Of a stretch of DNA of 64,000 nt, positions 2,132 through 63,335 are shown one piece after another. Below the pieces are notes generated by a model. That model was not told the origin of the DNA and did not search any database. It saw only the letters and a program-made list of their open reading frames with translations. A program made the translations under genes and the position numbers. Every line of letters starts with the position of its first letter. The stretch's first letter is position 1. Source of the stretch: Planctomycetota bacterium (GTDB taxonomy: Bacteria > Planctomycetota > B129-G9 > JAJDCN01); the NCBI GenBank assembly GCA_029260815.1, contig JAJDCN010000130.1, positions 929 through 64,928 on the forward strand. Direction: 5' to 3'.

Positions 2132-3100
2132 CTACGCTGCGTGCCGGCGGCGCCAAGATAAATAGAGGGCTCCTGCAGCGATTGCGGCACAGAATGCAAT
2201 TGCTGCCAGCCAAATGGTGCTAAGGGAAAAACTATTGTCGGTACTGTCCGCTGCTCCTTCGTCGGTAGTGGGAACAGGTTTACGAGGGTGCGACAATGGA
2301 GTAGGGTCTTTTGCCATATCTCTGTTAACGGGTTCCTCGCTTTCAACCGGCTGGGCTCTCTTTTTCCTGTCTGTGAGCCATGTCTCAAGTGTTCCATGAT
2401 ATCCGTCGAAGTCCTCGCTCTCCATCATCTTTTTGCCCAACTCTGTGAACGGCTTGTACTCCGTCCACAACACCAGGCCCACCAGAAATTCGCGGTCATC
2501 CTCGTACTTGACCCCTTGACTGATGCGTTCTTCGACCATCTTGGCAAGGGCCTTAATCTCTTGCCAATTCATCGGCTTCACGTCGAGGTCAAACTCTGCC
2601 GAGGTCTCTGTCAGTGGTGGCCCACGGTCTCCTCTGTTTGGCCCTGGAACATAAAGAGTCCATTTCAGATTCAGAATTGACGAGCCGGCAGGGAACGACG
2701 AAAAGTCGTGGTGGAGATATACTAATGACGTGAGCTTTTCTCCGGGGCTGAGTGAACGTGAGCCAATTAGGCCGCTGGGATCAGAAAAATCCTCTAAATC
2801 ATGCTTGCGTTTTACCCATGTCGAAGGAGCTGTGACTTCCACGGGCCACGACAACCGCAACTCAGTATCCCAGTAATAATCGATCGGCTCGTCCCCCAAA
2901 TACTGATGGGTTACTTTAAGAATTACAGGTCCGCTCTCAATGGCGCCGACAACCTCAATGTTCAAGTCAAAGGCTTCATTGAGAACCTCTTCCTGCTCCG
3001 GGGCTTCAATGTCTGGTGCAGTATACGCTGGGATTGCGCTAATCAAAATAGCAGTGCTCAGAGCTACAAGCGCTAATAGTTTGTATACCAAACGATCCAT
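2132..3100 (-). CDS. Hypothetical secreted protein with C-terminal membrane anchor
   Basis: 322 aa. N-terminal signal peptide (MDRLVYKLLALVALSTAILISAIPAYTA), C-terminal hydrophobic helix followed by RRRHAA. Local GC is lower than the surroundings. No recognisable catalytic motif. Confidence 0.5.
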   Translation of the reverse strand: MDRLVYKLLALVALSTAILISAIPAYTAPDIEAPEQEEVLNEAFDLNIEVVGAIESGPVILKVTHQYLGDEPIDYYWDTELRLSWPVEVTAPSTWVKRKHDLEDFSDPSGLIGSRSLSPGEKLTSLVYLHHDFSSFPAGSSILNLKWTLYVPGPNRGDRGPPLTETSAEFDLDVKPMNWQEIKALAKMVEERISQGVKYEDDREFLVGLVLWTEYKPFTELGKKMMESEDFDGYHGTLETWLTDRKKRAQPVESEEPVNRDMAKDPTPLSHPRKPVPTTDEGAADSTDNSFSLSTIWLAAIAFCAAIAAGALYLSWRRRHAA

Positions 3101-3231
3101 CCAGAAAGATCCTCTCTAAATTGAAGACGATGATGCCAAGTCGGAATTGCTGCCACGCTGAACCCTTTGCTCGTTGCAATCGGGGCTCCGCCATTGGCGG
3201 GATCGGTAAACAGCGTCGTTCCGACACCGCG

Positions 3232-4083
3232 TCAAGAAGGCGTGACGGCGGCGTGGATCTCCAGGAGGGTCTTGATCAGGTCCCGCAGCTCGTCGAACGG
3301 GATCATGTTCGGCCCGTCGGACAGGGCCTCTTCCGGATTCTCGTGGGTCTCGAAGAACACCCCGTCGGCGCCCGCCGCGACGCCCGCCTTGGCCAGCACC
3401 GGAGCGTATTCCGAATTCCCGCCCGAGATACTGCCCTGCCCGCCCGGCACCTGCACCGCATGGGTGCAGTCCATGACCACTGGATAGCCGTAGCCACGCA
3501 TAAACGGAACCGATCGGAAGTCTGTCACCAGCGTATTGTAACCAAAGCTGGATCCGCGCTCGGTCAGGAGGATCTTGTCGTTGTCCGAATCCGTTACCTT
3601 TTCGATCGTGTGGATCATGTCCCAGGGTGCGAGAAACTGACCCTTCTTGATATTGACCACCTTGCCGGTCTTGGCCGCCGCCACCAAAAGATCTGTTTGC
3701 CGACACAGGAACGCGGGAATCTGCAGGATGTCTAGCACCTCCGCAGCTGGTTGCGCGTGATCGGCTTCGTGGACGTCCGACAGCACCGGCAGGCCGATCT
3801 CGTCGCGAACCTTGGCGAGCACTTTGAGCCCGTCGTCCAGCCCTGGCCCGCGGAAGGAGCGAACCGACGTTCGGTTGGCCTTGTCGTAGGAGGCCTTAAA
3901 GACGAGCGTCGCGCCGGTGGCGTCGGCCAGCTTCTTGATCTTTTCAGCCAGGTGCAGCGCCGGCCCTTCCCCTTCGATCACGCACGGCCCGGCGACAAAG
4001 AACAGGTGCCCATTGCGTAGCGCAACGCCGTTGGACAAGGGGTAATGGAATAGGGTCTCTTCGTTTTGATTCTCTTGATTCAT
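3232..4083 (-). CDS. kdsA: 3-deoxy-8-phosphooctulonate synthase (KDO-8-P synthase)
   Basis: 283 aa with strong family signature 'FVAGPCVIE', 'VFKASYDKANRTS', 'LAPWDM', 'VMDCTHAVQ' and 'DGVFFETH'. Confidence 0.9.
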   Translation of the reverse strand: MNQENQNEETLFHYPLSNGVALRNGHLFFVAGPCVIEGEGPALHLAEKIKKLADATGATLVFKASYDKANRTSVRSFRGPGLDDGLKVLAKVRDEIGLPVLSDVHEADHAQPAAEVLDILQIPAFLCRQTDLLVAAAKTGKVVNIKKGQFLAPWDMIHTIEKVTDSDNDKILLTERGSSFGYNTLVTDFRSVPFMRGYGYPVVMDCTHAVQVPGGQGSISGGNSEYAPVLAKAGVAAGADGVFFETHENPEEALSDGPNMIPFDELRDLIKTLLEIHAAVTPS

Positions 4084-4958
4084 GTTTGGCTCCTCGGAGC
4101 CACTATTCTAACCTTCCGCCCGTCCATTGCAACCGTGACGGGAAGGGTTTTAAAAAAATCTCCGTCCAGTTGCAACGGCACTGGTTCCGGGCTGGTCAAC
4201 GCCACACGCTGGCCCTGGAGCAATTGGACCTTGGATTCGGGCAGCCGCTTGAACAAAAAGGCGTGGGCCAGCAGCAGAAGGAACCGCAGCGCGCTGCGCG
4301 AGCGGATGACACAGACCTCAAACCGACCGTCGCACGGGTCGGCATCCGGCGCGATGCGCATCGGCCCGCCGTAGGTGGCCACGTTGGTGATCACCACGGC
4401 GGAGGCCGTTTCGGTGATGAGATGGTCGTCGAGCACCAGCTTGATAGGCGGGAAAGAATAGCCGCGAATCGCTTGGAGGATCGGACGGGCATAGGACAGA
4501 AACGACCATCGTCCCTTGCGGCTCAGCGCAATCCGGCGGGTGACCTCCGCATCCAACCCGGCCCCGGCCATCAATAAAAAACGCCGCTCATCGCACAGCA
4601 AGGTGTCCATTTCCCGGAACCAGCCCTTTTCGATCCAATCACACAGCGCCTCGAGGTTTGCGGACAGGCCAAGCTCCCGCGCCAGAACGTTGGCGGTTCC
4701 GGTGGGGACGATGGCCAAGGGTGGCGGATTGTCCGGGAGAGCGTTGAGGACCCGGTTGATCGTGCCGTCGCCGCCGATCACCGCCACCAGATCGCAGGCC
4801 TGATCAAACAGGGCTTCAAACCGCTCCTCTGCTTGGGTGGCGTAAATGGAGGCCGTGTAGCCGATCTTCTCCAGATGGCCCCGCAGGCGATCGGCCAGGT
4901 CCATCGACCGGCCACCGCCGGAGATCGGGTTCGCGACGATCCGTGCAATCAACGGCAA
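4080..4958 (-). CDS. Diacylglycerol-kinase-catalytic-domain lipid kinase (YegS/DagK-like)
   Basis: 292 aa. 'IVANPISGGG...' followed by 'VIGGDGTINRVLNAL' is the DAGK_cat GGDGT motif. The stop overlaps the kdsA start by 4 bp. Confidence 0.75.
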   Translation of the reverse strand: MPLIARIVANPISGGGRSMDLADRLRGHLEKIGYTASIYATQAEERFEALFDQACDLVAVIGGDGTINRVLNALPDNPPPLAIVPTGTANVLARELGLSANLEALCDWIEKGWFREMDTLLCDERRFLLMAGAGLDAEVTRRIALSRKGRWSFLSYARPILQAIRGYSFPPIKLVLDDHLITETASAVVITNVATYGGPMRIAPDADPCDGRFEVCVIRSRSALRFLLLLAHAFLFKRLPESKVQLLQGQRVALTSPEPVPLQLDGDFFKTLPVTVAMDGRKVRIVAPRSQT

Positions 4959-12107: not shown

Positions 12108-13406
12108 TCAATCCTTTTCTTCTTCTTCGGCCGACTCCCCGTCTTCCTCCATGCCGAACATATGCCGGACCGCATCGATGTAGCGGCCGTCGCCGCCGTT
12201 CTTTGCGTCGGACCGCAGGATTTCCAGGGGCTTGTGCAGGATCTTGTGGACCAGCCGGTCGGCCATATAGGCGATTTCCTGTTTTTGTTCCTCGCTCAGG
12301 TCGCCCAGGCGGCGAATCGCCCGCTCGCTCTCGGACCGGCCGATCTGTTCCACCCGCTCATGCAGGCGAGTGATCAGAGGCTCCACGTTGTACAGCCGCA
12401 TCTGACCGGTAAACTCCTCCACCTCCTTGTCGATCAGGGTGGTGCATTTTTCGATCTCCTTCTCCCGGGCGTCCAAGTTGCGCATGACGACGGTCTGCAG
12501 GTCGTCCAGGCCGTAGACGTACACGTTGTCCAGCCTGTTGACGTCCGGATTGATATCTCGGGGCAGGGCGATGTCGATGAAGAGGATCGGGCGGCCCTTG
12601 CGCGTGCGCATCGCTCGCCGAACCTGCGCGGGCTCGATTACGAAGTGGGGCGCGCCGCTGGAGGCGATGACGATATCGACGCGTGACAGCTCTTCTTCGA
12701 TCGCGTCAAAGCGTACCGCGCGTCCACCGATCCGCTCGGCCAGGCCCACCGCCTTTTCGTGGGTTCGATTGGCCACGACGGTGGCGCCGATGCCGTGCTC
12801 CCGCAGGTGTTCCAGTGTCAGTTCGCTCATCTCGCCGGCGCCGATGACCATGGCGGTCTTGCCGGAGAAGTCCTCGAAGATCCGTTCGGCAAAATCCACC
12901 GCCACGCTGCTGACGGAGACCTTCCGCTCGGAAATGGAGCTGGCGGTGTGGACCTTTTTGCCCACTCGGAAGGCGGTTTGAAACAGGCGGTTGAAGAACT
13001 TTCCGGTACACGCGTGTTCAAATGCCTCCATATAAGCTTGTTTCACCTGGCTTAGAATCTGCGTCTCGCCCAGGACCATCGAATCGAGGCTGCTGATGAC
13101 CCGAAACAGATGGCGCACCGCGTCGATTCCCGTGTATTCGTACAAATGGCTCTCGAACGCATCCCGTGGTGGCCCGCGGAATTCCGACAGAAATTGAGCG
13201 GCCTGTGTATTGCCAAACAAACCCTCTTCGCTCGTGACGTACAATTCGGTTCGATTGCAGGTAGATACAATCACCGCCTCGGAGACGCCCGTGCACCGGT
13301 TTAATTCGGCCAGGGCTTGGGGGAGCTGGCTGCCGGAAAAGGCGAGCTTTTCGCGCACTTCGATCGGGGCGGATTTATGATTCAAACCGATAACGACGAC
13401 TTCCAT
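12108..13406 (-). CDS. hemA: Glutamyl-tRNA reductase
   Basis: 432 aa with an N-terminal 'VVIGLNHKSAPIEVREK...STCNRTELY' (catalytic Cys) and an NADP-binding 'AMVIGAGEM' motif. Confidence 0.9.
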   Translation of the reverse strand: MEVVVIGLNHKSAPIEVREKLAFSGSQLPQALAELNRCTGVSEAVIVSTCNRTELYVTSEEGLFGNTQAAQFLSEFRGPPRDAFESHLYEYTGIDAVRHLFRVISSLDSMVLGETQILSQVKQAYMEAFEHACTGKFFNRLFQTAFRVGKKVHTASSISERKVSVSSVAVDFAERIFEDFSGKTAMVIGAGEMSELTLEHLREHGIGATVVANRTHEKAVGLAERIGGRAVRFDAIEEELSRVDIVIASSGAPHFVIEPAQVRRAMRTRKGRPILFIDIALPRDINPDVNRLDNVYVYGLDDLQTVVMRNLDAREKEIEKCTTLIDKEVEEFTGQMRLYNVEPLITRLHERVEQIGRSESERAIRRLGDLSEEQKQEIAYMADRLVHKILHKPLEILRSDAKNGGDGRYIDAVRHMFGMEEDGESAEEEEKD

Positions 13407-13421
13407 TCGACGTTTATATCC

Positions 13422-14273
13422 TTACCCCAGGGCCTTGTGGATGCGCGGCCCTGCATCCAGCAGGAACCGAATAAACGGATAGGCCAGCGTTCCCAGCACC
13501 GCACCGGTGACAGTTAGCAACGCAATCCGGCGCTGTCCGAACAACATCTTAGCTCGCGTGATCAAGAGGCTTCCATAGATGACCCAGACGATCAGTCCCC
13601 AGATGACCAGGGAGCCCGGGCCCGGCTCCAACCCCTCCTCGCCTGCCAGGACCACCGGGATCAACAACCCCAGGGTCAACAACAGGTGACCGTAGCCGAT
13701 GGATCCAAAGCTCAGCCGGTCCAGCTTCTCCAGGGCGGGCAGACGTCGTGCCCAGCCGGTGGCGCCGGTGCTGGACTTGAGCCGCCGCTCCTGCAGGATG
13801 TACATCAAGGACGTGGCAAAGGATAGGATGAAACATCCCATGCTCATGATCAGCGCGCCCACATGGAAACCAACCCACAGGCGGTGTACCAGTTCCATCT
13901 GTTCGGTTTGTTTGTCTGCTCCGTGGGTGGAGAAGTTGATTACCGACAAGGTGAACAGGATCGCGATGACCGGCACGGCAAACGGGATGATTAGACGGAC
14001 CTTGAACAGGATGCTCATGACCAGGCAACAGGCCACCAGAGCCCAGACCACCGACACGAGGAACTCGAAACCTGAAAAGATCGGCGGCTGCCCCGTCCGC
14101 AAACCGCGCGCGATCAGCGCCAGGGTCTCCAGGACAAAGCCGATCGATAAAAATGTCTGTCCCCAGCGCAACCGAAAACGTCGGTCCCAGATAAAATAGG
14201 CGACGCTCCAAAACGCGGTCAACAAGTAAAAGACTGCCGAGCCGTGGAAGGCCCAGACTTCAAATACTTTCAC
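13422..14273 (-). CDS. Cytochrome c assembly protein family membrane protein (CcsA-like / HemX-type)
   Basis: 283 aa polytopic membrane protein whose topology and Trp-rich segments resemble the CcsA family. It sits immediately upstream of hemA, as HemX does in hemAXCDBL-type clusters. Confidence 0.7.
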   Translation of the reverse strand: MKVFEVWAFHGSAVFYLLTAFWSVAYFIWDRRFRLRWGQTFLSIGFVLETLALIARGLRTGQPPIFSGFEFLVSVVWALVACCLVMSILFKVRLIIPFAVPVIAILFTLSVINFSTHGADKQTEQMELVHRLWVGFHVGALIMSMGCFILSFATSLMYILQERRLKSSTGATGWARRLPALEKLDRLSFGSIGYGHLLLTLGLLIPVVLAGEEGLEPGPGSLVIWGLIVWVIYGSLLITRAKMLFGQRRIALLTVTGAVLGTLAYPFIRFLLDAGPRIHKALG

Positions 14274-54210: not shown

Positions 54211-55409
54211 AAAAGCCTCGCATCTGGGCCGAAATCAATCTGGAAGACCTGCGGCACAATCTGCAGGCGATCAAGAGACACCTGGCGGGCCGGGCCAAGG
54301 TCATGGCTGTGGTCAAGGCCGACGCCTACGGTCACGGGTCGGTCCCCGTCTCGATCGCGCTGTGGGAGTTCGGCGTCGACATGTTTGGCGTGGGCGATTC
54401 CAGTGAAGCGTTGGAGCTGCGCGGTGTGGGAATCAACACGCCGATTGTCATCCTCGGCGGAATCGTCGATGAGGAGATTGAACGCGTGGTCAAGGCGGAC
54501 ATTACGCCGACGCTGCACTCGGTTCAGGTCGGTCAGTTGGTCAATGCCGAGGCCCGGCGGCAAGGCAAAGTGCTCAACGTCCACGTCATGATCGATACGG
54601 GGATGGGGCGGTTGGGCACCTCGCCTCGTCATGCGCTGGAGTTGATTGAGGCGCTGTCGAAGCTTGAAAATCTTCGGTTGGAAGGTATCTGTAGCCACTT
54701 CTCCTCGTCCCCGTTCGACCGGGACTTTACACGAAACCAGTTTGCCGAGTTCCAGCAGGTGGTGGCAGCAGCCGAGACGGCCGGGTATCGCATTCCGATT
54801 CGTCACATGGCGAACTCTGCGGGTTGTCTTCTGTATGAAGAGACGGCGTTGGACATGGTCCGGATCGGCGGCGCCCTGCTGGGCATGGATCCGGCGGGCG
54901 TTTATGCGGAGCAATTTGGATTGCGCCCAATCTTGAGCTTCCGGAGTCAGATCGTTTTTTTGAAGTGGATTCCCAAGGGGTCTCCCGTCGGATACGACCG
55001 CACGTTTATTGCGCCGCGGGATACGCGGGTTGCCACGACACCGGTGGGGTACCACGACGGATATTCCTATTTGTTATCGAATCGGGGATCTGTTATCATA
55101 CGGGGCAGGCGGGTTCCGGTGATCGGCGGCGTGACGATGGACTATACCATGCTGGACGTGACCGATCTTCCGGAGGTGGCGGTGGGGGATGAGATCGTGT
55201 TGATCGGCTCCCAGGGCAACGAGACCATATCTGCGGTGGACGTGGCACAGGTGATCGGCACCAACCCCTACGAGGTAACCTGCCTGTTGGGCAAGCGGGT
55301 CCGGCGGATCCATATCCGCAACGCGTTGCACAGTTCCGCGCCACCTGCCCAAGATGCCGAATCCGTTCCACAGGCCGCTCCGATCCAATACAGGTCTGCC
55401 GACGCATGA
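54207..55409 (+). CDS. alr: Alanine racemase
   Basis: 400 aa. 'AVVKADAYGHG' carries the PLP-Lys motif, and the C-terminal beta domain is present. ATGA overlaps on both sides. Confidence 0.9.
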   Translation: MKKPRIWAEINLEDLRHNLQAIKRHLAGRAKVMAVVKADAYGHGSVPVSIALWEFGVDMFGVGDSSEALELRGVGINTPIVILGGIVDEEIERVVKADITPTLHSVQVGQLVNAEARRQGKVLNVHVMIDTGMGRLGTSPRHALELIEALSKLENLRLEGICSHFSSSPFDRDFTRNQFAEFQQVVAAAETAGYRIPIRHMANSAGCLLYEETALDMVRIGGALLGMDPAGVYAEQFGLRPILSFRSQIVFLKWIPKGSPVGYDRTFIAPRDTRVATTPVGYHDGYSYLLSNRGSVIIRGRRVPVIGGVTMDYTMLDVTDLPEVAVGDEIVLIGSQGNETISAVDVAQVIGTNPYEVTCLLGKRVRRIHIRNALHSSAPPAQDAESVPQAAPIQYRSADA

Positions 55410-58400
55410 AAAAGCGTATTTTGGTTCTTGCCGCAACGCTGTTCTTCGCCGTTGCGGGTTCCGTGATTCTGGATGTTGCGCTTCTCGCCAGCGACGAGCG
55501 GGTTCACGCTCTCGCCGTGGAGGGAATCGAATCGCAGTTGAACGTTCGCGTCGAACTCGAAGCGGCCACCTATCATATCTTTGGCAACGTCGAGCTTTCC
55601 GGTTTGACGCTCCACTCCCTGGACGACCCGGAAGATGCATCTTCCTTCGCGTATCCGAAACACCATGTTCTGCGCGTAGAATCCGCATCGATCCGACCCA
55701 ACCTGCTTTCTCTGCTGGGTGTGGGCAGCCTGGTGCGCGCGGTGATCCTGGACAACGTGGAGCTGCACGTTTCCAAGAACCGCGATGGGGCGGTAAACCT
55801 GGCCCGGCTAATCAAGCCAAGTATTGAGCCGAGCGAGGCGATTGAGCTGCCCCGGATCGTGATAAAGGGGTTTCGTGTTTGGTACGCGGACCTTTCGGAG
55901 AATCCGGAAAACGTGGTTCCCACCGCGTACCCGCCCATCAACCTTTCCCTCCGGCCGCACAAATTGCAGTGGGTCGATGATGCAATCAACGAGCTGTCCG
56001 TGGGCCTGGAGGATCCCTATCTGGGCAAAGTCCTGGTCAAAACTCGATTCAACGGGAATTTTTCACACGTTGAAATGGAATCCGCCAGCGACCAAAACAT
56101 ATTGCTGTTGGATTCAACGCTCCACAAGCTCCTACCGATAGGACCGCGTCGTTTGTGGAGTGAGTTCCAGGTCAAAGGAAGTTTGCACATCGATGAGTTG
56201 TTGCTCACATTGGACAGCCAAGGGCCACGGCCGGTCAAACTGAACGCGAAGTTTCGTGCAGAAAAATGCAGCATCAACAGCGCGCGATTTCCGCTTCCGG
56301 TGCACCACCTCGAAGGTTCTCTTCAGGTCTCACATGGCCGTCTTATTTTCGACGTTGCGGGGCGCTCCGGACCTGCAACGATTCTTGGCCGAGGGGAGCT
56401 TTCCGGTCTCTTGGCGGGGGATCTGCTGGTTGATGCGACCGCTTCGATTGATGGCGCCACCCCTGCCATGATCCGCAAGGCCCTGACCCGCCCGCGGCTG
56501 GAGGCGATCGGCGACGCCAAGACGGCTGCGGCGCGCGCCGCACTGGCGGAGTCCATGACGGAAATCCTTGACCGTTACGATCCGAAGGGTGGGTCTATTA
56601 CTGCGAAAGTGGCGATCAACAACCGGGAAGCCGAGCCGGACGTCATTCACTCAAATTTGACGATGCACCTGAAGGACGTTTCCGGTTCCTACGAAAACTT
56701 CCCCTACCGCGTGTATCACATGGACGGGGAAATCGCCGTTCAGGACGACGCCATCACCATCACGCGGTTGGCGGGAGCGACCCAAGAGGATCTCGCTGCG
56801 GCCGGGCGCGTCTCCATCCACGGTCGGGTGACCGGTTCGGGCGCGGATGAAAACGTGAACGTGGATATCATCTTGAGCGAGATTCCTTTGGACGAGAAGG
56901 TCGGTGGCGGCTTTCTCATGGAGCAGTCCAGAAAGATGTGGGACAACTTCACTCCCCGAGGAATCGCGCAGAACGTAACGGTCAAGGTGCTGCGGGACCC
57001 GAAGGAGCACCCGGAGATCCACACCTCCGTGGTGGCCACCCTGGACGGTCGCGCCTCGATTCGGGCGGGTGAAATCTCCGTTCACATCGAAGACCTGGTG
57101 GGAACGGTGAACGTCGAAAACGACGCACTGGAGTACAAGATAAAACAGGGCCGCTATCGTCAGGCTTCGGTCACTGGCTGGGGGAAGGTGCCGGGTGCCG
57201 AGCAGGAGACACCGGAAAAGCACGAAATCGAGATCGAAAGGGCGCCGCTCGACGAAGCATTGCGCAAGGCACTGCCGCCGGACGCGAAGTCGATCTGGGC
57301 GTTGATCAACCCCGAGGGAAAGATCAATGCCACGTTGCGGATCGACCGGGCGGCCAAAGCGACCGCCTACAAGACCAACTTGATCCTCCGTGCCGAAGGC
57401 GAAGCCTCCTTTGCCTACACGGGGTTTCCCCTCCGGGTTGCAGGCGTACGCGGCGAGATTCGTGTAAGGGATCACTTCATCTCTTTCGAAAGATTGGAGG
57501 GCGTCTGTTACGGATCGCGGGTCTCGCTTTCTGATGGTCGATTTTCCAGCGACCGGGACTTGTCGGACACCGCACAGGTCCATGTTTCGATCCAAGGGTT
57601 GAAGTTGACGGACCCGGTTTATCTGGCGATGCCCAAGGACGTGCGCGAGGCCCTGCGCGATGTGGGTTTTCAGGGAACCGTGTCCGCCGACTTGAAGATC
57701 GACAGCCTCACGGTGGGCATGTCTTCAGGTACGTCCTTGCACGGGACGCTTCAGATCGAGAAGGCCTCCCTCGGACGCCATGGCGAGATTACGGAACTGG
57801 ACGGGACCTTGCACATCGCCGAGAAGAGCTCCTTCGACAACGGTGGCCGGTTTGCCTTCCGCGGCCGATTTGACGGCAAGCGCTTGATGGCGTTAGACCA
57901 ATGGCACATGAACGCACTGCAGTGCACGTTTGACGTAAGCAATGACGAGCTGACATTCGATAATGTTACGGCCGGGTTCTGTGGCGGGACGATCAGCGAT
58001 AGCTACGCGCGCTTTAAGTTTAACGCGACCAACGATTTTGAAGGCGCGTTAAAGCTCAAGGCCGCGGAGCTGAATCAACTAAAAAGAGGGAACAAACTGG
58101 CGGAAAACCTGAAGCCGATTCATGGGAAGATCGATGGTTGGGTCAATTTTGCAGGCCAGGGCTCCGATACCAAGAAGCTGACCGGCGACGGCGGGGTTCG
58201 GGTGACTGAAGCGGAGATTTGGGAAATCCCGATCGTCTTTAACGTTTTGAACTTCCTGGCACTCAAGATTCCGGAAAAGGAATTCATCGAAGAGGCCAAG
58301 GTGAAATTTAAGATCGCCAGCGAAAAATTTTCCTTTAAGGAGTTGACGTTAAATAGCGATAGCGTCTCTTTTTCAGGCAAGGGGCACGTCGATTTCGAAG

Positions 58401-58585
58401 GGAACTTGAACGTTCGACTGGAGCTCGACATCCTTCCGGGCATGCCGTTTTTTATCGAACCGTTGGGCGACCTGATGGGCGGTGTGGGCCAATGGATCCA
58501 AGGCGCGCTTATCCCGGTTTCCGTCACAGGCACGCTGGATGATCCCCAGGCCCACATCGAGCCGCTGGGGATCGGCGGTGGTTAG
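55406..58585 (+). CDS. AsmA/TamB-like large membrane-anchored protein
   Basis: 1059 aa with an N-terminal TM anchor (ILVLAATLFFAVAGSVIL), a long beta-rich repetitive body, and a C-terminal region that resembles the AsmA-like C-terminal domain. The start overlaps the alr stop. Confidence 0.65.
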   Translation: MKKRILVLAATLFFAVAGSVILDVALLASDERVHALAVEGIESQLNVRVELEAATYHIFGNVELSGLTLHSLDDPEDASSFAYPKHHVLRVESASIRPNLLSLLGVGSLVRAVILDNVELHVSKNRDGAVNLARLIKPSIEPSEAIELPRIVIKGFRVWYADLSENPENVVPTAYPPINLSLRPHKLQWVDDAINELSVGLEDPYLGKVLVKTRFNGNFSHVEMESASDQNILLLDSTLHKLLPIGPRRLWSEFQVKGSLHIDELLLTLDSQGPRPVKLNAKFRAEKCSINSARFPLPVHHLEGSLQVSHGRLIFDVAGRSGPATILGRGELSGLLAGDLLVDATASIDGATPAMIRKALTRPRLEAIGDAKTAAARAALAESMTEILDRYDPKGGSITAKVAINNREAEPDVIHSNLTMHLKDVSGSYENFPYRVYHMDGEIAVQDDAITITRLAGATQEDLAAAGRVSIHGRVTGSGADENVNVDIILSEIPLDEKVGGGFLMEQSRKMWDNFTPRGIAQNVTVKVLRDPKEHPEIHTSVVATLDGRASIRAGEISVHIEDLVGTVNVENDALEYKIKQGRYRQASVTGWGKVPGAEQETPEKHEIEIERAPLDEALRKALPPDAKSIWALINPEGKINATLRIDRAAKATAYKTNLILRAEGEASFAYTGFPLRVAGVRGEIRVRDHFISFERLEGVCYGSRVSLSDGRFSSDRDLSDTAQVHVSIQGLKLTDPVYLAMPKDVREALRDVGFQGTVSADLKIDSLTVGMSSGTSLHGTLQIEKASLGRHGEITELDGTLHIAEKSSFDNGGRFAFRGRFDGKRLMALDQWHMNALQCTFDVSNDELTFDNVTAGFCGGTISDSYARFKFNATNDFEGALKLKAAELNQLKRGNKLAENLKPIHGKIDGWVNFAGQGSDTKKLTGDGGVRVTEAEIWEIPIVFNVLNFLALKIPEKEFIEEAKVKFKIASEKFSFKELTLNSDSVSFSGKGHVDFEGNLNVRLELDILPGMPFFIEPLGDLMGGVGQWIQGALIPVSVTGTLDDPQAHIEPLGIGGG

Positions 58586-58701: not shown

Positions 58702-59271
58702 TTACTCGGACGTGCGCGTTATCTTTTTGGGTGGCGGCGGTGGCGAAAACTTCAAAATCTCAGCCGCTTGAGGATCATTGGGCGCCGGGATGACGCGCAC
58801 GCGCAAGGAGAGGCTTTGATTCCCCTTGTCGGTTTTTGTCTCTAGGGGACTCTGCCCCAACACGTGAACCTGGCCGGGAACGGGACTAAGGGTTTGATCC
58901 AATGCAAAGCTTTGACGGGTTTCCGTGTTGAAAACATGGAAGCGAAGCGTGAGCCGGACCTGGTCCGGCTGGATGTCCAGGATCCGACCGTTCAGGGTGA
59001 GTTTCCATCCGGTTTCGACAAGGCCGTTGGCGTCGGGCCGTTGCTCCAAATCTTGGGAAAATGGACCCGGTGACGCGGTCAATGAGAATTCTTGAGAGAA
59101 TACTTCTGGCTTGGCATCGGTGTCCACCGGTCTCTGTTCACGGCTCAGCGTAAACTCGAGTTCGACCATTCTGCCGGAAACACTGGCGCGGGGATCATGC
59201 ACAGGGCCGGTTTCAAAAACTTCGCACCCGACCGTCAGCGTCACGGCAACCAGCAGCAAAAAACGTTTCAC
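58702..59271 (-). CDS. Hypothetical lipoprotein
   Basis: 189 aa with a signal peptide plus lipobox 'LTVGC' and a Pro-rich C-terminal tail (PPPPPKK). Confidence 0.5.
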   Translation of the reverse strand: MKRFLLLVAVTLTVGCEVFETGPVHDPRASVSGRMVELEFTLSREQRPVDTDAKPEVFSQEFSLTASPGPFSQDLEQRPDANGLVETGWKLTLNGRILDIQPDQVRLTLRFHVFNTETRQSFALDQTLSPVPGQVHVLGQSPLETKTDKGNQSLSLRVRVIPAPNDPQAAEILKFSPPPPPKKITRTSE

Positions 59272-59311: not shown

Positions 59312-60325
59312 TTAGCAACGACGCCCGATCACTTTGGCGATCCCGTCGACCTCGGTCATGAGACGGATCAACTGCTCCGGCCGGATCGACTGGGCCCCGT
59401 CGGACAGCGCCTGATCCGGCTGTGCGTGCACCTCGATAAGCAACCCGTCGGCCCCTGCGGCGACTGCCGCGCGACTCATGGGAAGGACCTTGTCGCGCAG
59501 ACCGGTTCCGTGACTCGGGTCGGCAAGGATGGGCAGGTGAGAAAGGGCTTTGACCACGGGAATTGCGCTGATGTCCAGGGTGTTGCGTGTGAGTCCTTCA
59601 AACGTCCGGATGCCCCGTTCGCACAAGATCACGTTGTTGTTGCCCTCGACCATGATGTACTCCGCGGCCTGGAGCCACTCTTCGATCGTGGCCGAGCGCC
59701 CGCGTTTGAGCATGGCCGGCTTGCCGCTGCGACCGACCTCGCGCAACAAGGGATAGTTCTCCATGCTGCGGGAGCCGACCTGGAGGATGTCGGCGTACTG
59801 CGTCATCATCTCCACGTGGCGCGTGTCGAGGACTTCGGTGATGACCAGAAGCCCGTTTTCGTCCGCCGCGCCCCGCAAGGTCTTCAGGGCGCTCTGGCCG
59901 AGTCCCTGGAAGCTGTAGGGCGAGGTCCGCGGCTTAAACGCTCCGCCTCGCAGGCCCACGGCCCCGGCGGCCTTGACCTGTCGTGCCAAAGCGTAGACCA
60001 TCTCTTCATTTTCCACCGAGCAGGGCCCGGCAAAGATCGCCAGGCGTTCCCCGCCAATGGTCACCGGGCCGATCCGGATCTGCGTATCGGCGGCCTGGTG
60101 TCGCCGGGCGGGCAGCCGGTAAGGCGGCCACAGGTTGCCGGCTTGAAGAACGCCGGGCATCGCGCGAATGGAGCCGAGAATCTCACGCGGGCTGTCTCCA
60201 TCGGTGTTGAGAACCACCCCGTCTTCGGAGTCTTCGCGCCGGGGGGCAAGCCCGAAATGGTGTAGCGCTCCCAGCACGGTATCGACCTGCTTATCGGTTA
60301 CGTTGGTATCCATGACCACGTACAT
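59312..60325 (-). CDS. 3-deoxy-7-phosphoheptulonate (DAHP) synthase, type I-beta with N-terminal regulatory domain
   Basis: 337 aa from the KDO8PS/DAHPS I-beta family ('IFAGPCSVE', 'GAFKPRTSPYSFQG', 'DPSHGTG'). It has a ~65 aa ferredoxin-like N-terminal extension similar to Thermotoga-type DAHPS. Confidence 0.85.
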   Translation of the reverse strand: MYVVMDTNVTDKQVDTVLGALHHFGLAPRREDSEDGVVLNTDGDSPREILGSIRAMPGVLQAGNLWPPYRLPARRHQAADTQIRIGPVTIGGERLAIFAGPCSVENEEMVYALARQVKAAGAVGLRGGAFKPRTSPYSFQGLGQSALKTLRGAADENGLLVITEVLDTRHVEMMTQYADILQVGSRSMENYPLLREVGRSGKPAMLKRGRSATIEEWLQAAEYIMVEGNNNVILCERGIRTFEGLTRNTLDISAIPVVKALSHLPILADPSHGTGLRDKVLPMSRAAVAAGADGLLIEVHAQPDQALSDGAQSIRPEQLIRLMTEVDGIAKVIGRRC

Positions 60326-60452
60326 TGTTGGGTGAGCCTCCGCTCAAACGAAGGAAACTGCTGGTAAATCATGCCTTGAATGAACCGTAATTGTATCAAT
60401 CGCCTGCTGAAATTCAACTGAAAAGGGGTTCCGGGAGTTTGGACGCGGGGTA

Positions 60453-61085
60453 CTATTGCAGTTTGATCTGGTAGCCGGTCCTTGCCCAAAGCAGGAGATT
60501 CTCCGCGGAGGAGCGCTTGTCGTTGGCCTTCAGCCAGGCGGTGTATAGATCCAGTATCTGGCCCAGGGGGCTGTCGGCGTGGGTGGGAAAGTGTCCGTAG
60601 CGCTTGGAGAGCTGCTCTCGGGCCGCATTGAGATCTTTTCCGCTGGCGATCAAGGCCAACGCCGCGGGCATGCCCACCCGATCGCTTCCGACAACGCAAT
60701 GAAGGAGCGAGGGCCGCTTGGAAGGGTCCGCCAACACCTCGCACAATGCAATCAGCGTTTTACGATCCGGAAGGGCAAAGTAATCCAGCTTAATGTCAAT
60801 CAGCTCCACGCCGGCGCGCGCGCAGGCCTTTTGTTCGTCCCGATACCACTCGGCATCCTCCTTGCCCCGCAGATTCAGGACGCTCTGAAGCCCATAGGTT
60901 TCCGCCGTCTGCTCCAGCGTGGCCCCATCCAGTTGCGCCGATCGATAGAGTTCGCCAGGCAGGACTGTATGGAAGTTATCGTTGAAAAGAGCATGCCAAT
61001 AGTAAAACGCGAACACAGCCCCCACGGCCGCGACGGAAGTCAGCAGAAGGATCGCGATGGTGATCACGCGCCGGGGACGTACCAT
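60453..61085 (-). CDS. Membrane-anchored protein-tyrosine/dual-specificity phosphatase-like protein (CX5R)
   Basis: 210 aa with an N-terminal TM helix. 'LYRSAQL...VLNLRG' is a Tyr-phosphatase-family-2/3-like motif and 'HCVVGSDRVG' is the catalytic CX5R P-loop. Confidence 0.7.
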   Translation of the reverse strand: MVRPRRVITIAILLLTSVAAVGAVFAFYYWHALFNDNFHTVLPGELYRSAQLDGATLEQTAETYGLQSVLNLRGKEDAEWYRDEQKACARAGVELIDIKLDYFALPDRKTLIALCEVLADPSKRPSLLHCVVGSDRVGMPAALALIASGKDLNAAREQLSKRYGHFPTHADSPLGQILDLYTAWLKANDKRSSAENLLLWARTGYQIKLQ

Positions 61086-61098
61086 AAAATCACCTCGG

Positions 61099-62106
61099 TC
61101 AAGGAGAGATGGTCAGCGGCTGCTGGGTCGGCTGGCCTGAAACGGTAGAAAACAAAGCCCGTTGCACGTGCCACATATCCGCATGGAGAATGTATTCGCC
61201 CGGCGATACCGTGACGGGCAGCCGGCACGAAACGGTGAGCGTTTGACCCGGGCCGATTGTTTGATCCGGGTACTCGATTGGGCCCAGCGCGATCCGGTCG
61301 CCCCCGTCGCGGCTTGCCGGATAAAGCCAAAGGCGAAGCTTCACTTTGTTCCGTTCATCGCCCGTCGAGCAGTGCCACGGCTGGGTGCTGACGTTTTTGA
61401 CGAGAACGGTCAAGCCAAGGACTCCGCCGGAGCGAATCGATTCGGGCATCTCCTCAAACTCGATCAGGGCTCCGTACAAATCGTAGACGTAAACGTTCTT
61501 GGCCCAATACGTCAGAGCCTCGGTCGTGGGCTCTTTTTGATTCGTCTCAAGCCATGCGATCCATTCTTCCAAAAGCCGGTCCATGGCGCCGGCGCCTGTA
61601 AAGGCCAGGTGTCCGTACCGGACGGACAGTTGGTCGCGCGCGACTTCGGCGTCCTTCTGCTCAAGGAGGGCGACCAAGGCCGATGCCAGCCCCGCGCGAT
61701 CCATCCCCGCCTTGCAATGAAACAGGATCGGCCGGCGAATGCGGTCACCGACGATCTGTGCCAGCTTGCGCAACTCCTCGGGCTTTGGACGAGATTCCGC
61801 ATGTAAGCTGATGTCCAGATGGGTGACGCCCAGTCGTTTGCAGACCTTCTTTTCGGCGGTATGCCAAGATCGGGTTGAGGGGCCGCGTAGATTCACAACT
61901 GTTTTGATGGATCGCTCCTGGATCACGTTTTCCAGATCCTCCGCGTCCATTTGCGCGGAGCGGTACACCTGATCGGGAATCACAACGTAAAAGTTGTCAT
62001 GGAAAAGAGCTTGCCAGTAGACCGCCACAAGGACACCCACAACGAGGATGAGTATCAGGAAGCAATACGCCCACCAGCTCTTGTTTTTATTCTTCTTTTC
62101 TATCAT
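61099..62106 (-). CDS. Membrane-anchored protein-tyrosine/dual-specificity phosphatase-like protein (CX5R), paralog with C-terminal extension
   Basis: 335 aa with an N-terminal TM helix. 'VYRSAQM...VVNLRG' and 'HCKAGMDRAG' are present, plus a ~130 aa beta-rich C-terminal domain that the neighbouring paralog lacks. Confidence 0.7.
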   Translation of the reverse strand: MIEKKNKNKSWWAYCFLILILVVGVLVAVYWQALFHDNFYVVIPDQVYRSAQMDAEDLENVIQERSIKTVVNLRGPSTRSWHTAEKKVCKRLGVTHLDISLHAESRPKPEELRKLAQIVGDRIRRPILFHCKAGMDRAGLASALVALLEQKDAEVARDQLSVRYGHLAFTGAGAMDRLLEEWIAWLETNQKEPTTEALTYWAKNVYVYDLYGALIEFEEMPESIRSGGVLGLTVLVKNVSTQPWHCSTGDERNKVKLRLWLYPASRDGGDRIALGPIEYPDQTIGPGQTLTVSCRLPVTVSPGEYILHADMWHVQRALFSTVSGQPTQQPLTISP

Positions 62107-62150: not shown

Positions 62151-63131
62151 TTAAAGCCAGCCCGCATCAAGATACCATTGATAGGTATCCTTGAGTCCGC
62201 TTGCCAAGTCGAAGGTGGGCTGGTAGCCAAGCACTTCTTGCGCCTTGGCGATATCGCAACACCAGCCGGTCGCCAACCACAGACGCGCGCTGTCGCGCCC
62301 GAAGACTGGCTTGGAGTTTGAGAACACATTCACGGCATCGCCCATCCAACCACCGATCGAAAAGGCCAGCGGCGGAATGGGAAGAGGAATTGCCCGGGTT
62401 CCGATTGCCGCGAGCATCGTGTCGGTTAGCTTGATCCAGCTATAGTTTTCGGCGGCCCCCAGATAAAACAACTCGCCGTAGGCCTTGGGGTTTCCCAGCA
62501 TTTTCAGAACGCCCTGGACGAGATCTTTGACGTGAAAAAAATTGTAATGCCGTCGTCCCGTCCCGGGGATCGGACGAATGTGTCGGCGTAGCGTCTTGAA
62601 AAAATGATAGATGCTCAGGTCCCGTGGTCCAAAGGTGATGGAGGGGCGGACAATCGTAACCGGAAACCGGTCCTGCTGCGCCAGGACGTGCAACTCTGCC
62701 TTCCGCTTGGAGTGCCCATAGACGCCGCAGGGGGTCGGCTCCATGGCCTCATTCGCCGGGGACTTGTCCGATGTGGCCCCGGCTGCGGCGAGAGAGGAGA
62801 TCTGGATGAATTGCTTTAGGTCCGGGCAGCGGTCCACAACGGCAGCGACCAGGTTTTCGGTTCCCGCATCATTGGCCGCAACCATGTCCTGCGATCGGCT
62901 GGCTCCGAATTGGGCCGCCGAGTGAACGACGGCCTGGCATCCGTCGACGACCGCGGCCAATGACCGCCGATCGCTCAAATCGCCCACCCGTCGCTCGACC
63001 GGAAGTGTCTTGAGAAACGCCACGTTTGAGGTCTTGCGTACCAGGCAGACGACCTCGTGGCCTTGCCCCGCCAACTCTTCAGCAATGTGGGAACCGATAA
63101 AACCGGACGCCCCTGACACTAGAACGCGCAT
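62151..63131 (-). CDS. NAD-dependent epimerase/dehydratase family protein
   Basis: Real start is MRVLVSGASGFIGSH (a GxxGxxG Rossmann motif). Has 'YGHSK' (YxxxK) and an extended-SDR fold. Confidence 0.85.
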   Translation of the reverse strand: MRVLVSGASGFIGSHIAEELAGQGHEVVCLVRKTSNVAFLKTLPVERRVGDLSDRRSLAAVVDGCQAVVHSAAQFGASRSQDMVAANDAGTENLVAAVVDRCPDLKQFIQISSLAAAGATSDKSPANEAMEPTPCGVYGHSKRKAELHVLAQQDRFPVTIVRPSITFGPRDLSIYHFFKTLRRHIRPIPGTGRRHYNFFHVKDLVQGVLKMLGNPKAYGELFYLGAAENYSWIKLTDTMLAAIGTRAIPLPIPPLAFSIGGWMGDAVNVFSNSKPVFGRDSARLWLATGWCCDIAKAQEVLGYQPTFDLASGLKDTYQWYLDAGWL

Positions 63132-63335
63132 TGCGCCTCCAAAACGCGATTTCACAAATCGTGAACGGAAACCTATCAAGCGTGTAAGTCATTGTCAAGC
63201 CTCATCTTCTCTGTGATTCTGGAATTGAAATTCCCTTGCGGGTATGTCCAGGCGTGCTACAATATCAACCGATTGGGCGTCGCGCGGCCATTGCGACGCC
63301 TTTTGGTTAGGCGGTTATCGAGATCTCCGGTCCCA

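Follow-up and report, generated by a model that had tools for sequence, protein, structure and literature searches.

To our knowledge, PAP2 and BacA-type enzymes are the only lipid phosphatases at the outer face of the cytoplasmic membrane. The PAP2 enzymes (PgpB, LpxE, LpxF, and BcrC) hydrolyze lipid phosphates and pyrophosphates there. They are histidine-based integral membrane proteins, and some are genetically tied to pathways with ArnC-like family 2 glycosyltransferases (GT2). Here we describe two adjacent genes, A and B, that encode membrane-anchored, cysteine-based phosphatases of the protein tyrosine phosphatase (PTP)/dual-specificity phosphatase (DSP) superfamily. They lie in a 64,000-nucleotide stretch of a planctomycete contig (JAJDCN010000130.1, positions 929 to 64,928; assembly GCA_029260815.1), which we call the window. 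We tentatively favor the reading that both proteins act on lipid-linked phosphate at the outer face of the cytoplasmic membrane and give it slightly less than an even chance.

Several described systems resemble A and B in part. The plant and fungal atypical DSPs (PFA-DSPs), including Siw14, are eukaryotic and cytosolic. They have characteristic YRS and P-loop motifs, and their P-loop, HCxxGKHR, is strongly basic. TpbA of Pseudomonas aeruginosa (PA3885; PDB 4r0s and 2m3v) is a soluble periplasmic dual-specificity phosphatase exported by a cleaved 28-residue signal peptide (PMC4409338). No transmembrane (TM) anchor is present in the MptpB-like atypical lipid phosphatases (ALPs), which are either secreted or soluble. 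In their signature, HCXXGKDR[TA]G, the Asp is essential for catalysis and the Lys is needed for phosphoinositide binding (PMC3091653). In myotubularin-related lipid phosphatases, the P-loop Asp is the general acid/base and replaces the WPD-loop Asp (PMC4809516). Two operons are relevant for their organization, in which genes for a glycosyltransferase, an enzyme that modifies the head group, and an MprF-like flippase come together. The gpgSDF operon makes glucosaminyl-phosphatidylglycerol in P. aeruginosa (PMC12713373). The product of the hexSDF operon, which an adjacent two-component system controls, is an aminohexosyl glycolipid of Clostridioides difficile (PMC10128005). Only recently, through these two operons, have standalone MprF-type (PplT/UPF0104) flippase-like proteins been connected with particular modified lipids. 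The flippase-like domain has been proposed as a general prokaryotic lipid translocator (bioRxiv 10.1101/2022.03.11.483950).

A and B are paralogs (38% identity over 195 residues; E = 3e-49, BLASTP). Each belongs to the PTP/DSP superfamily, retains the CX5R loop intact, and is modeled with confidence as a DSP fold. Their open reading frames (ORFs) are complete and together span exactly the interval marked in an earlier note on this DNA (60453 to 62106). That note had read two adjacent genes there, each with an N-terminal TM helix followed by a phosphatase domain, and the ORFs, the Pfam matches, and the AlphaFold2 (AF2) models agree with it. The sequence blocks it quoted are all present (FH/FN-DNF..V.P..YRSAQ, V.NLRG, and HCKAGMDRAG/HCVVGSDRVG). 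The three Pfam families it had proposed for checking gave a mixed result. Both proteins pass the gathering cutoff of PF13350 (Y_phosphatase3; 22.2 bits), with 40.8 bits for A and 40.3 bits for B. For PF22785 (Tc-R-P; cutoff 27 bits), A passes marginally with 28.4 bits and B, with 17.1 bits, does not. Neither passes PF03162 (Y_phosphatase2; cutoff 27 bits), with 22.6 bits for A and 12.9 bits for B. The best Pfam family of A is PF22741 (PTP-NADK; cutoff 27 bits), which both pass (47.4 and 30.6 bits). A phosphatase family match, on which the note had staked its reading, is present for both proteins, together with the intact catalytic loop. The NCBIfam profiles contained no specific model for either protein. 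The name PTP-NADK refers to fusions with an NAD-kinase/DAGK-fold kinase domain, and Pfam found no kinase domain in A, in B, or in the adjacent genes. A literature search on "DSP-PTPase" found no published description of PF22741.

The AF2 model of A (predicted local distance difference test score [pLDDT] 92.3; predicted TM-score [pTM] 0.82) consists of a helix (residues 8 to 35), an alpha/beta domain (38 to 205), and an all-beta domain (213 to 334). The model of B (pLDDT 93.6; pTM 0.85) has a helix (4 to 34) and a catalytic domain like that of A. We searched both against the PDB with Foldseek and report TM-scores normalized to the target (TMt) or to the query (TMq). Matches at a TMt of 0.64 to 0.77 included TpbA, Siw14, AtPFA-DSP1, DUF442, SsoPTP, DUSP23, PTPMT1, and Tk-PTP. 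A matched TpbA (4r0s) at a TMt of 0.71 and also matched DUSP23, PTPMT1, and Siw14. B matched Siw14 (TMt 0.70 to 0.74), TpbA (0.66), AtPFA-DSP1, and DUF442. TpbA was the best sequence match among solved structures (E = 1.4e-5). The HMMER alignment places HCKAGMDRAGL of A on HCKHGNNRTGL of TpbA, with C131 on C132 and R137 on R138. The common features are the fold and the YRSA and HCK.G..R.GL motifs, and identity is about 20 to 25%.

The catalytic residues are well conserved. In A numbering, the residues invariant across 22 to 63 homologs are R49 (of YRS), N72-L73-R74-G75, D98, P126, H130, C131, G134, R137, and W201. The site aligned with TpbA's general acid, D105, holds E104 in A and F103 in B and varies among family members. 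D98, which closes a strand, is invariant, and the WPD/IPD-type acid position, on the loop after beta-4, is variable. The P-loop Asp, D136 of A and D135 of B, is kept in at least 90% of the family. By analogy with the myotubularins and the MptpB-like enzymes, this Asp probably acts as the general acid/base. That A and B have the C-X4-D-R Asp in common with both groups of lipid phosphatases speaks for a link to lipids. The likeness to the ALPs also includes the PF13350 match, the HCxxGxDR[TA/V]G shape of the loop, and the lack of a conserved WPD-type Asp. It does not extend to the signature Lys, which is replaced by M135 in A, by S134 in B, and, in the family consensus, by Ala. The likeness to the ALP family is therefore one without the full signature. 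A and B also lack the lid insertions of MptpB, and of the 240 positions of the Pfam model their match takes in only a part.

The fold matches raise the possibility that A and B are small-molecule (pyro)phosphatases of the PFA-DSP/Siw14 or "PTP-NADK" type. They would then act on polyphosphate, inositol pyrophosphate-like compounds, or nucleotides, with the helix serving for localization only. Siw14 and AtPFA-DSP1 are the top fold matches of B (PDB 6byf, 6e3b, and 7mom) and have the same compact atypical DSP core. The YRS and P-loop motifs are common to both groups, and PF22741 is the best Pfam match of A. We nevertheless consider this reading improbable. The P-loop is an acidic HCxxGxDR instead of the basic PFA-DSP loop, and PF03162 stays below its cutoff. 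No kinase domain is fused or adjacent, the periplasm has no known pool of such substrates, and the relatives are linked to lipid-handling proteins, as described below.

B shows no sign of being a dead copy, since it has every invariant residue, among them R48, N71-L72-R73-G74, D97, P125, H129, C130, G133, and R136. This bears on the reading that only A is an enzyme and that B is a diverged pseudophosphatase or regulatory partner that pairs with A in the membrane. The P-loop of B, HCVVGSDRVG, departs from the consensus HC[HK]xGADR[TA]G at three positions. The five homologs that a word-indexed search found for B would fit a fast-evolving copy, and the spacing of 13 nucleotides (nt) between the genes suggests coupled expression. 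Against this stand the invariant residues and the confident model of B. The Ser/Thr after the catalytic Arg is missing in A too, so this change is not specific to B. We regard a noncatalytic B as very improbable.

The membrane anchor has a clear charge pattern. The best 19-residue window has a mean Kyte-Doolittle value of 2.66 in A and 2.58 in B. Four Lys/Arg residues precede the helix in A and three in B, and none occurs in the 15 residues behind it in either protein. All long-form homologs have the TM helix and charge pattern of A. The charge bias, the homology to periplasmic TpbA, and the Ig-like C-terminal domain of A together predict an N-in/C-out topology, with the catalytic domains probably on the periplasmic face. 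A and B would thus be extracytoplasmic by way of an N-terminal export signal, as TpbA is. They differ from TpbA in that the anchor looks uncleaved, that D105 and HCKHGNNR are not kept, and that TpbA has no Ig-like domain. In the models, the first beta-strand starts about 5 residues past the helix, which would place the catalytic domains directly on the membrane.

The predicted topology argues against cytoplasmic targets, such as phosphoinositide-like lipids of the inner leaflet or cytoplasmic domains of bacterial tyrosine kinases (BY-kinases). The earlier note had suggested phosphoinositide-like lipids or Tyr-phosphorylated envelope-biogenesis proteins. In a cytoplasmic version of that reading, A and B would be tethered phosphatases facing the cytoplasm. 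They would act on such lipids or on Tyr-phosphorylated polysaccharide-export proteins, with the product of a neighboring short-chain dehydrogenase/reductase (SDR) gene as a partner in polysaccharide synthesis. The P-loop Asp is indeed common to the myotubularin and MptpB phosphoinositide phosphatases, and the SDR gene lies just upstream of A and is probably cotranscribed with it. TM-less homologs, presumably cytoplasmic, exist in Acetobacter, Rhizobium, and others. The charge bias, the Ig/CARDB-type domain, and the homology to TpbA all point outward, however. The Lys that binds phosphoinositides in the HCXXGKDR family is missing, and the SDR gene is not a conserved neighbor. Among the Pfam matches of the flanking genes, there was neither a BY-kinase nor Wza/Wzc nor a polysaccharide cluster. 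We think a cytoplasm-facing role quite unlikely.

The lipid substrate is suggested by the operons of the relatives, which contain a lipid flippase-like protein and a lipid-carrier glycosyltransferase. We compared 80 loci, from one genome per species, found with an alignment of the long form (TM helix, DSP domain, and beta domain; about 335 amino acids [aa]), and seven further loci from assemblies. The genome of the window lies outside the species-representative set, in which the best relative is 34% identical. Neighboring genes were identified by all-ORF clustering, tblastn, and profile searches. A flippase-like gene (LPG_synthase_TM/TIGR00374, PplT/MprF type), a GT2 gene, or both adjoin the phosphatase gene in 24 of about 35 long-form loci, from Planctomycetota and Myxococcota. 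Of the 11 long-form loci with neither gene, four are truncated less than 1 kb beyond the downstream end of the phosphatase gene. In 15 loci the next gene downstream is the flippase-like one, and the two genes overlap by 4 nt in three of these (L001, L003, and L004). It lies directly upstream in two metagenome-assembled genomes (MAGs), one labeled Deltaproteobacteria (L008) and one from Myxococcota (L014; PF03706, 119 bits). In 21 loci a GT2 gene is found no more than about 1.1 kb downstream. Its product fits the model of ArnC, the undecaprenyl-phosphate 4-deoxy-4-formamido-L-arabinose (Ara4FN) transferase, over its full length (187 to 193 bits). Beyond the 24 loci, the phosphatase/flippase-like/GT2 arrangement is likewise present in L086. 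The linkage is kept across phyla despite changes in gene order, which is good evidence of a functional connection. A further point that we counted toward the lipid link is that the closest relative of B lies beside a gene for a monogalactosyldiacylglycerol (MGDG)-synthase-like glycosyltransferase.

These units of the relatives resemble gpgSDF and hexSDF, in that three genes include a UPF0104/PplT flippase-like gene and a glycosyltransferase gene. They differ in that a phosphatase takes the place of the deacetylase as the modifying enzyme and in that the glycosyltransferase is an ArnC-like GT2 of the polyprenyl-phosphate type, not a GT4 or MGDG-synthase type. The unit of the relatives has no known lipid product, and the window has neither the glycosyltransferase nor the flippase. 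A literature search found no description of a signal anchor, DSP domain, and NBR1-Ig/CARDB domain beside PplT and ArnC-like GT2 genes.

Some short-form homologs have different neighbors. At 14 loci they adjoin pairs of OmpR-type response regulator and histidine kinase genes, among them L025 (8982 to 10534), L042, L047, L053, L066, L067, L075, L079, and L083. The alphaproteobacterial short forms have no TM helix, and the one in a MAG of the Synergistota is a TM-anchored protein of 192 aa. They may be a separate, signaling-linked branch of the family. They also bear on the main rival explanation, in which A and B are TpbA-like periplasmic protein phosphatases. Such enzymes would dephosphorylate Tyr, Ser, or Thr on periplasmic segments of diguanylate cyclases or sensor kinases and would tune envelope or biofilm programs. 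TpbA itself acts on periplasmic Tyr residues of the diguanylate cyclase TpbB/YfiN. It is a top fold match as well as the best sequence match among solved structures, and the two-component loci include L025, which has the nearest catalytic domain to that of A. Two-component systems are very abundant, though, which makes adjacency to them weak evidence. In the long-form relatives, the linkage is to genes for flippase-like proteins and GT2 enzymes and not to signaling genes. The family has HCxxGxDR in place of HCKHGNNR and does not keep D105, and Pfam found no diguanylate cyclase (GGDEF) or kinase gene flanking the pair in the window. We rate this explanation as a serious contender that is nonetheless unlikely.

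Under the lipid-phosphate reading, the two proteins could work as follows. An uncleaved N-terminal signal-anchor helix, with the N terminus inside, would hold A and B in the cytoplasmic membrane. The catalytic domain, which begins a few residues past the helix, would sit on the periplasmic face against the membrane. Cys131 of A or Cys130 of B would attack the phosphate, with the P-loop amides and Arg137 or Arg136 holding it. Asp136 or Asp135 would serve as the general acid/base, as in the myotubularins and the MptpB-like phosphatases. The substrate would most likely be a phosphate or terminal pyrophosphate on an outer-leaflet membrane lipid or lipid-linked glycan. Candidates are a polyprenyl (pyro)phosphate and a phosphorylated glycolipid or phospholipid head group. 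In the relatives, the adjacent ArnC-like polyprenyl-phosphate glycosyltransferase and MprF-type (PplT) flippase-like protein would supply this substrate. The phosphatase would be the modifying enzyme of the phosphatase/flippase-like/GT2 unit and would act after translocation. In A, the NBR1-Ig/CARDB-like beta-sandwich may bind the membrane surface or an envelope glycan. The proposed reaction and site would make A and B functional analogs of the PAP2 enzymes; the fold and chemistry are unrelated, A and B being cysteine based with a single anchor.

The C-terminal domain of A is a beta-sandwich of about 129 aa. In Foldseek it matches the CARDB domain 2kl6 (TMt 0.67). A phmmer search with residues 207 to 335 against 1.84 billion representative proteins matched repeated domains of giant proteins. 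The best match (P0247, residues 423 to 529; E = 3.8e-19) coincides with an N_BRCA1_IG repeat (437 to 524). In the top Foldseek matches of A, which are to PTEN, Ci-VSP, and auxilin, the alignment extends over both domains (E = 9e-9 to 1e-6). These proteins have the same order of membrane attachment, PTP domain, and beta-sandwich, with an N-terminal membrane domain in Ci-VSP, and the P-loop of PTEN starts with the same HCKAG as that of A. The differences are that no sequence homology is detectable beyond the P-loop, that the predicted side of the membrane is opposite, and that the beta domain is C2 in one case and N_BRCA1_IG/CARDB-like in the other. The membrane-hugging domain, the C-X4-D-R loop, the order of TM helix, PTP domain, and beta-sandwich, and the PTEN/Ci-VSP/auxilin matches fit a lipid phosphatase at the membrane surface, the last of these being a weak point.

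Several observations weigh against a lipid substrate at the outer face. None of the closest characterized relatives acts on lipids: the substrates of TpbA are proteins, and those of Siw14 and other PFA-DSPs are soluble inositol pyrophosphates. The loss of the signature Lys, noted above, also counts on this side. The PTEN-like matches have a TMq of only 0.33 to 0.38 (about 0.36) and a root mean square deviation of 9 to 12 Å (about 10 Å), so the domain orientation of A is unlike that of PTEN, Ci-VSP, and auxilin. By sequence, moreover, the C-terminal domain of A is Ig/CARDB-like and not C2. The topology is deduced from the positive-inside rule and from analogy. Among 126 family members we found no convincing lipobox or Tat variants that would provide independent proof of export. 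Neither a flippase-like gene nor one for an ArnC-like GT2 turned up in the window itself, whether with tblastn or with profile hidden Markov models run on all six-frame ORFs (E < 1e-3). The operon argument is therefore borrowed from relatives that are only 30 to 35% identical. In a neighbor-joining tree of the catalytic domains, which is star-like, A and B are not placed inside the operon-linked clade. The long-form loci of the Phycisphaerae type have housekeeping neighbors only (genes for a divergent DksA-like protein, LspA, M48, and RlmN). We considered these four as functional partners and judged them to be housekeeping synteny.

A and B are an uncharacterized variant of a known enzyme superfamily. 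They fail a defining feature of each of the better-characterized subgroups: the kinase fusion of PTP-NADK, the Lys of the ALPs, the acid of the TpbA type, the basic P-loop of the PFA-DSPs, and the C2 domain of PTEN. The best external homologs of A are 34 to 35% identical and come from Planctomycetota MAGs, mostly Gemmataceae. The best full-length homolog of B is 34% identical. Apart from self-matches, a collection of 5.8 billion protein clusters yielded no relative more than 40% identical to A, B, or the SDR. The lineage of the source is deep and has been poorly sampled. In the tree, the distance from A to B is 0.616 and that from A to L025 is 0.592, and A and B are nearly mutual nearest neighbors. 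To judge from these sequences, the pair may be an old duplication or two separate acquisitions. No adjacent tandem pair of phosphatase genes was found elsewhere in 84 related loci. In three Gemmataceae loci (L015, 8036 to 8626, plus strand; equivalents in L006 and L018), the long-form gene is preceded, about 1.2 kb upstream, by the gene for a distant TM-anchored paralog of 196 aa with the P-loop HCFAGIHRTG. The order in L015 is short PTP, TPR, long PTP, and GT2.

Further observations concern the loci of the relatives. Downstream of the phosphatase/flippase-like/GT2 unit in L003 (11063 to 12079, minus strand, and 12313 to 13821, plus strand), with equivalents in L004 and about five other Gemmataceae loci, are genes for a conserved 338-aa protein that has no Pfam or NCBIfam match and for an ivWA-helical_N/ivWA protein. 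The closest relative of B (P0122, 224 aa; locus L085) is divergently adjoined by a gene (2763 to 4778, minus strand) for a 671-aa MGDG-synthase-like/GT28-type glycosyltransferase fused to a PHP phosphoesterase domain. Genes for an LMF1-like membrane protein and a PEBP-family protein are nearby. Two family members (P0025 and P0044; 324 to 325 aa) have the JGI name "undecaprenyl-diphosphatase," the basis of which is not traceable. They have only DSP-type Pfam domains and a C-terminal domain unlike that of A. The name coincides with the polyprenyl-pyrophosphate hypothesis.

The coordinates of the features in the window are given in Table 1. Both genes are on the minus strand, so A, the long copy, is transcribed first and lies upstream of B. 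The earlier note had correctly placed a beta-rich C-terminal domain on one copy only and had called this copy the downstream one, which holds in plus-strand coordinates alone. The promoter match between B and the DAHP synthase gene suggests that the unit that starts with the SDR gene ends at B. The likely transcription unit is SDR-A-B.

Table 1. Positions of the phosphatase genes, their domains, and neighboring features in the window
Feature	Position	Strand	Residues	Description and basis
Gene A	61099..62106	minus	1-335	ORF, 335 aa; membrane-anchored PTP/DSP-fold phosphatase with C-terminal Ig-like domain
A, TM helix (signal anchor)	62002..62085	minus	8-35	Follows KKNKNK; AF2 and Kyte-Doolittle
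A, catalytic DSP domain	61489..62001	minus	36-206	Family alignments
A, P-loop	61690..61719	minus	130-139	H130-CKAGMDR-AG139 (C-X4-D-R); sequence
A, beta-sandwich	61102..61488	minus	207-335	Related to N_BRCA1_IG (PF16158)/CARDB Ig-like domains
Gene B	60453..61085	minus	1-210	ORF, 210 aa; membrane-anchored PTP/DSP-fold phosphatase without C-terminal domain
B, predicted Shine-Dalgarno-like site	61091..61096	minus		GAGGTG, inside the A-B spacer, six bases before the B ATG; sequence
B, TM helix	60984..61076	minus	4-34	Follows RPRR; AF2 and Kyte-Doolittle
B, P-loop	60672..60701	minus	129-138	H129-CVVGSDR-VG138 (C-X4-D-R); sequence
Extended-SDR gene	62151..63179	minus		PF01370, 123.8 bits; ends 44 nt upstream of A
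Sigma-70-like promoter match	60390..60417	minus		TTGAAT-16-TACAAT, with TG of an extended -10; separates B from the DAHP synthase gene; consensus scan only, weak evidence
3-Deoxy-D-arabino-heptulosonate 7-phosphate (DAHP) synthase gene, AroF type	59312..60325	minus		Begins 127 nt past B; NF006421, 435 bits; regulatory domain of ferredoxin-like type at the N terminus
189-aa ORF	58702..59271	minus		Lipobox LTVGC at start; no Pfam match; convergent with the 1059-aa gene
1059-aa protein gene	55406..58585	plus		Sub-threshold DUF748, YhdP, and T2SSN matches only
DAGK_cat/YegS_C lipid-kinase-like gene	4080..4958	minus		4-nt overlap with the KdsA-type gene
KdsA-type DAHP_synth_1 gene	3232..4083	minus		4-nt overlap with the lipid-kinase-like gene

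The genes around the pair are of housekeeping or general envelope type. They encode Pta-N/AAA_26, the SDR, DAHP synthase, the lipoprotein ORF, the AsmA/YhdP-like 1059-aa protein, alanine racemase, and TsaB. The SDR has a best NCBIfam match to an HpnA-like model (150 bits, against a cutoff of 368 bits), and its homologs are at most 40% identical and have generic names only. The earlier note had argued from this sugar epimerase/dehydratase neighbor to an envelope or polysaccharide role and had asked for conservation of the neighborhood. An envelope or lipid role is the best-supported direction, but the argument from the epimerase fails. SDR-like genes are near only 2 of the 84 related loci and never adjacent, and the conserved linkage is to the PplT/LPG_synthase_TM flippase-like and ArnC-like GT2 genes of the relatives. 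We rejected the SDR, a generic member of its family whose best relative is 40% identical, as a conserved partner of the phosphatases. The 1059-aa protein is possibly an AsmA-like intermembrane lipid transporter. The window holds two DAHP_synth_1-family genes, one AroF type and one KdsA-like. The lipid-kinase-like gene that overlaps the latter is 56 kb from the pair. It is conceivable that the phosphatases and this DAGK-fold kinase act as a pair on one lipid.

The wider proposal is that A, B, and their long-form relatives are the first PTP-fold lipid-phosphate phosphatases on the periplasmic face of a bacterial cytoplasmic membrane. Their part would be that of the modifying enzyme in an unrecognized phosphatase/PplT-flippase/ArnC-like GT2 pathway of Planctomycetota and Myxococcota, which would remodel a polyprenyl-linked or phospho-glycolipid head group once it is flipped. 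We hold this to be possible but on balance doubtful. The share of the window in it is two divergent, intact members of the phosphatase clade whose gene context differs. Should the lipid hypothesis fail, A and B are two more uncharacterized bacterial DSPs. If it is true, cysteine-based phosphatases would gain a function on the outer side of the cytoplasmic membrane, in convergence with the PAP2 enzymes and, in architecture, with PTEN and Ci-VSP. The phosphatase/flippase-like/ArnC-like GT2 unit would be a new three-component lipid-modification module. The envelope lipid chemistry of planctomycetes is little understood. The pair, together with the informative operon found in its relatives and not in the window, offers a testable lead into the modification of these envelope lipids.

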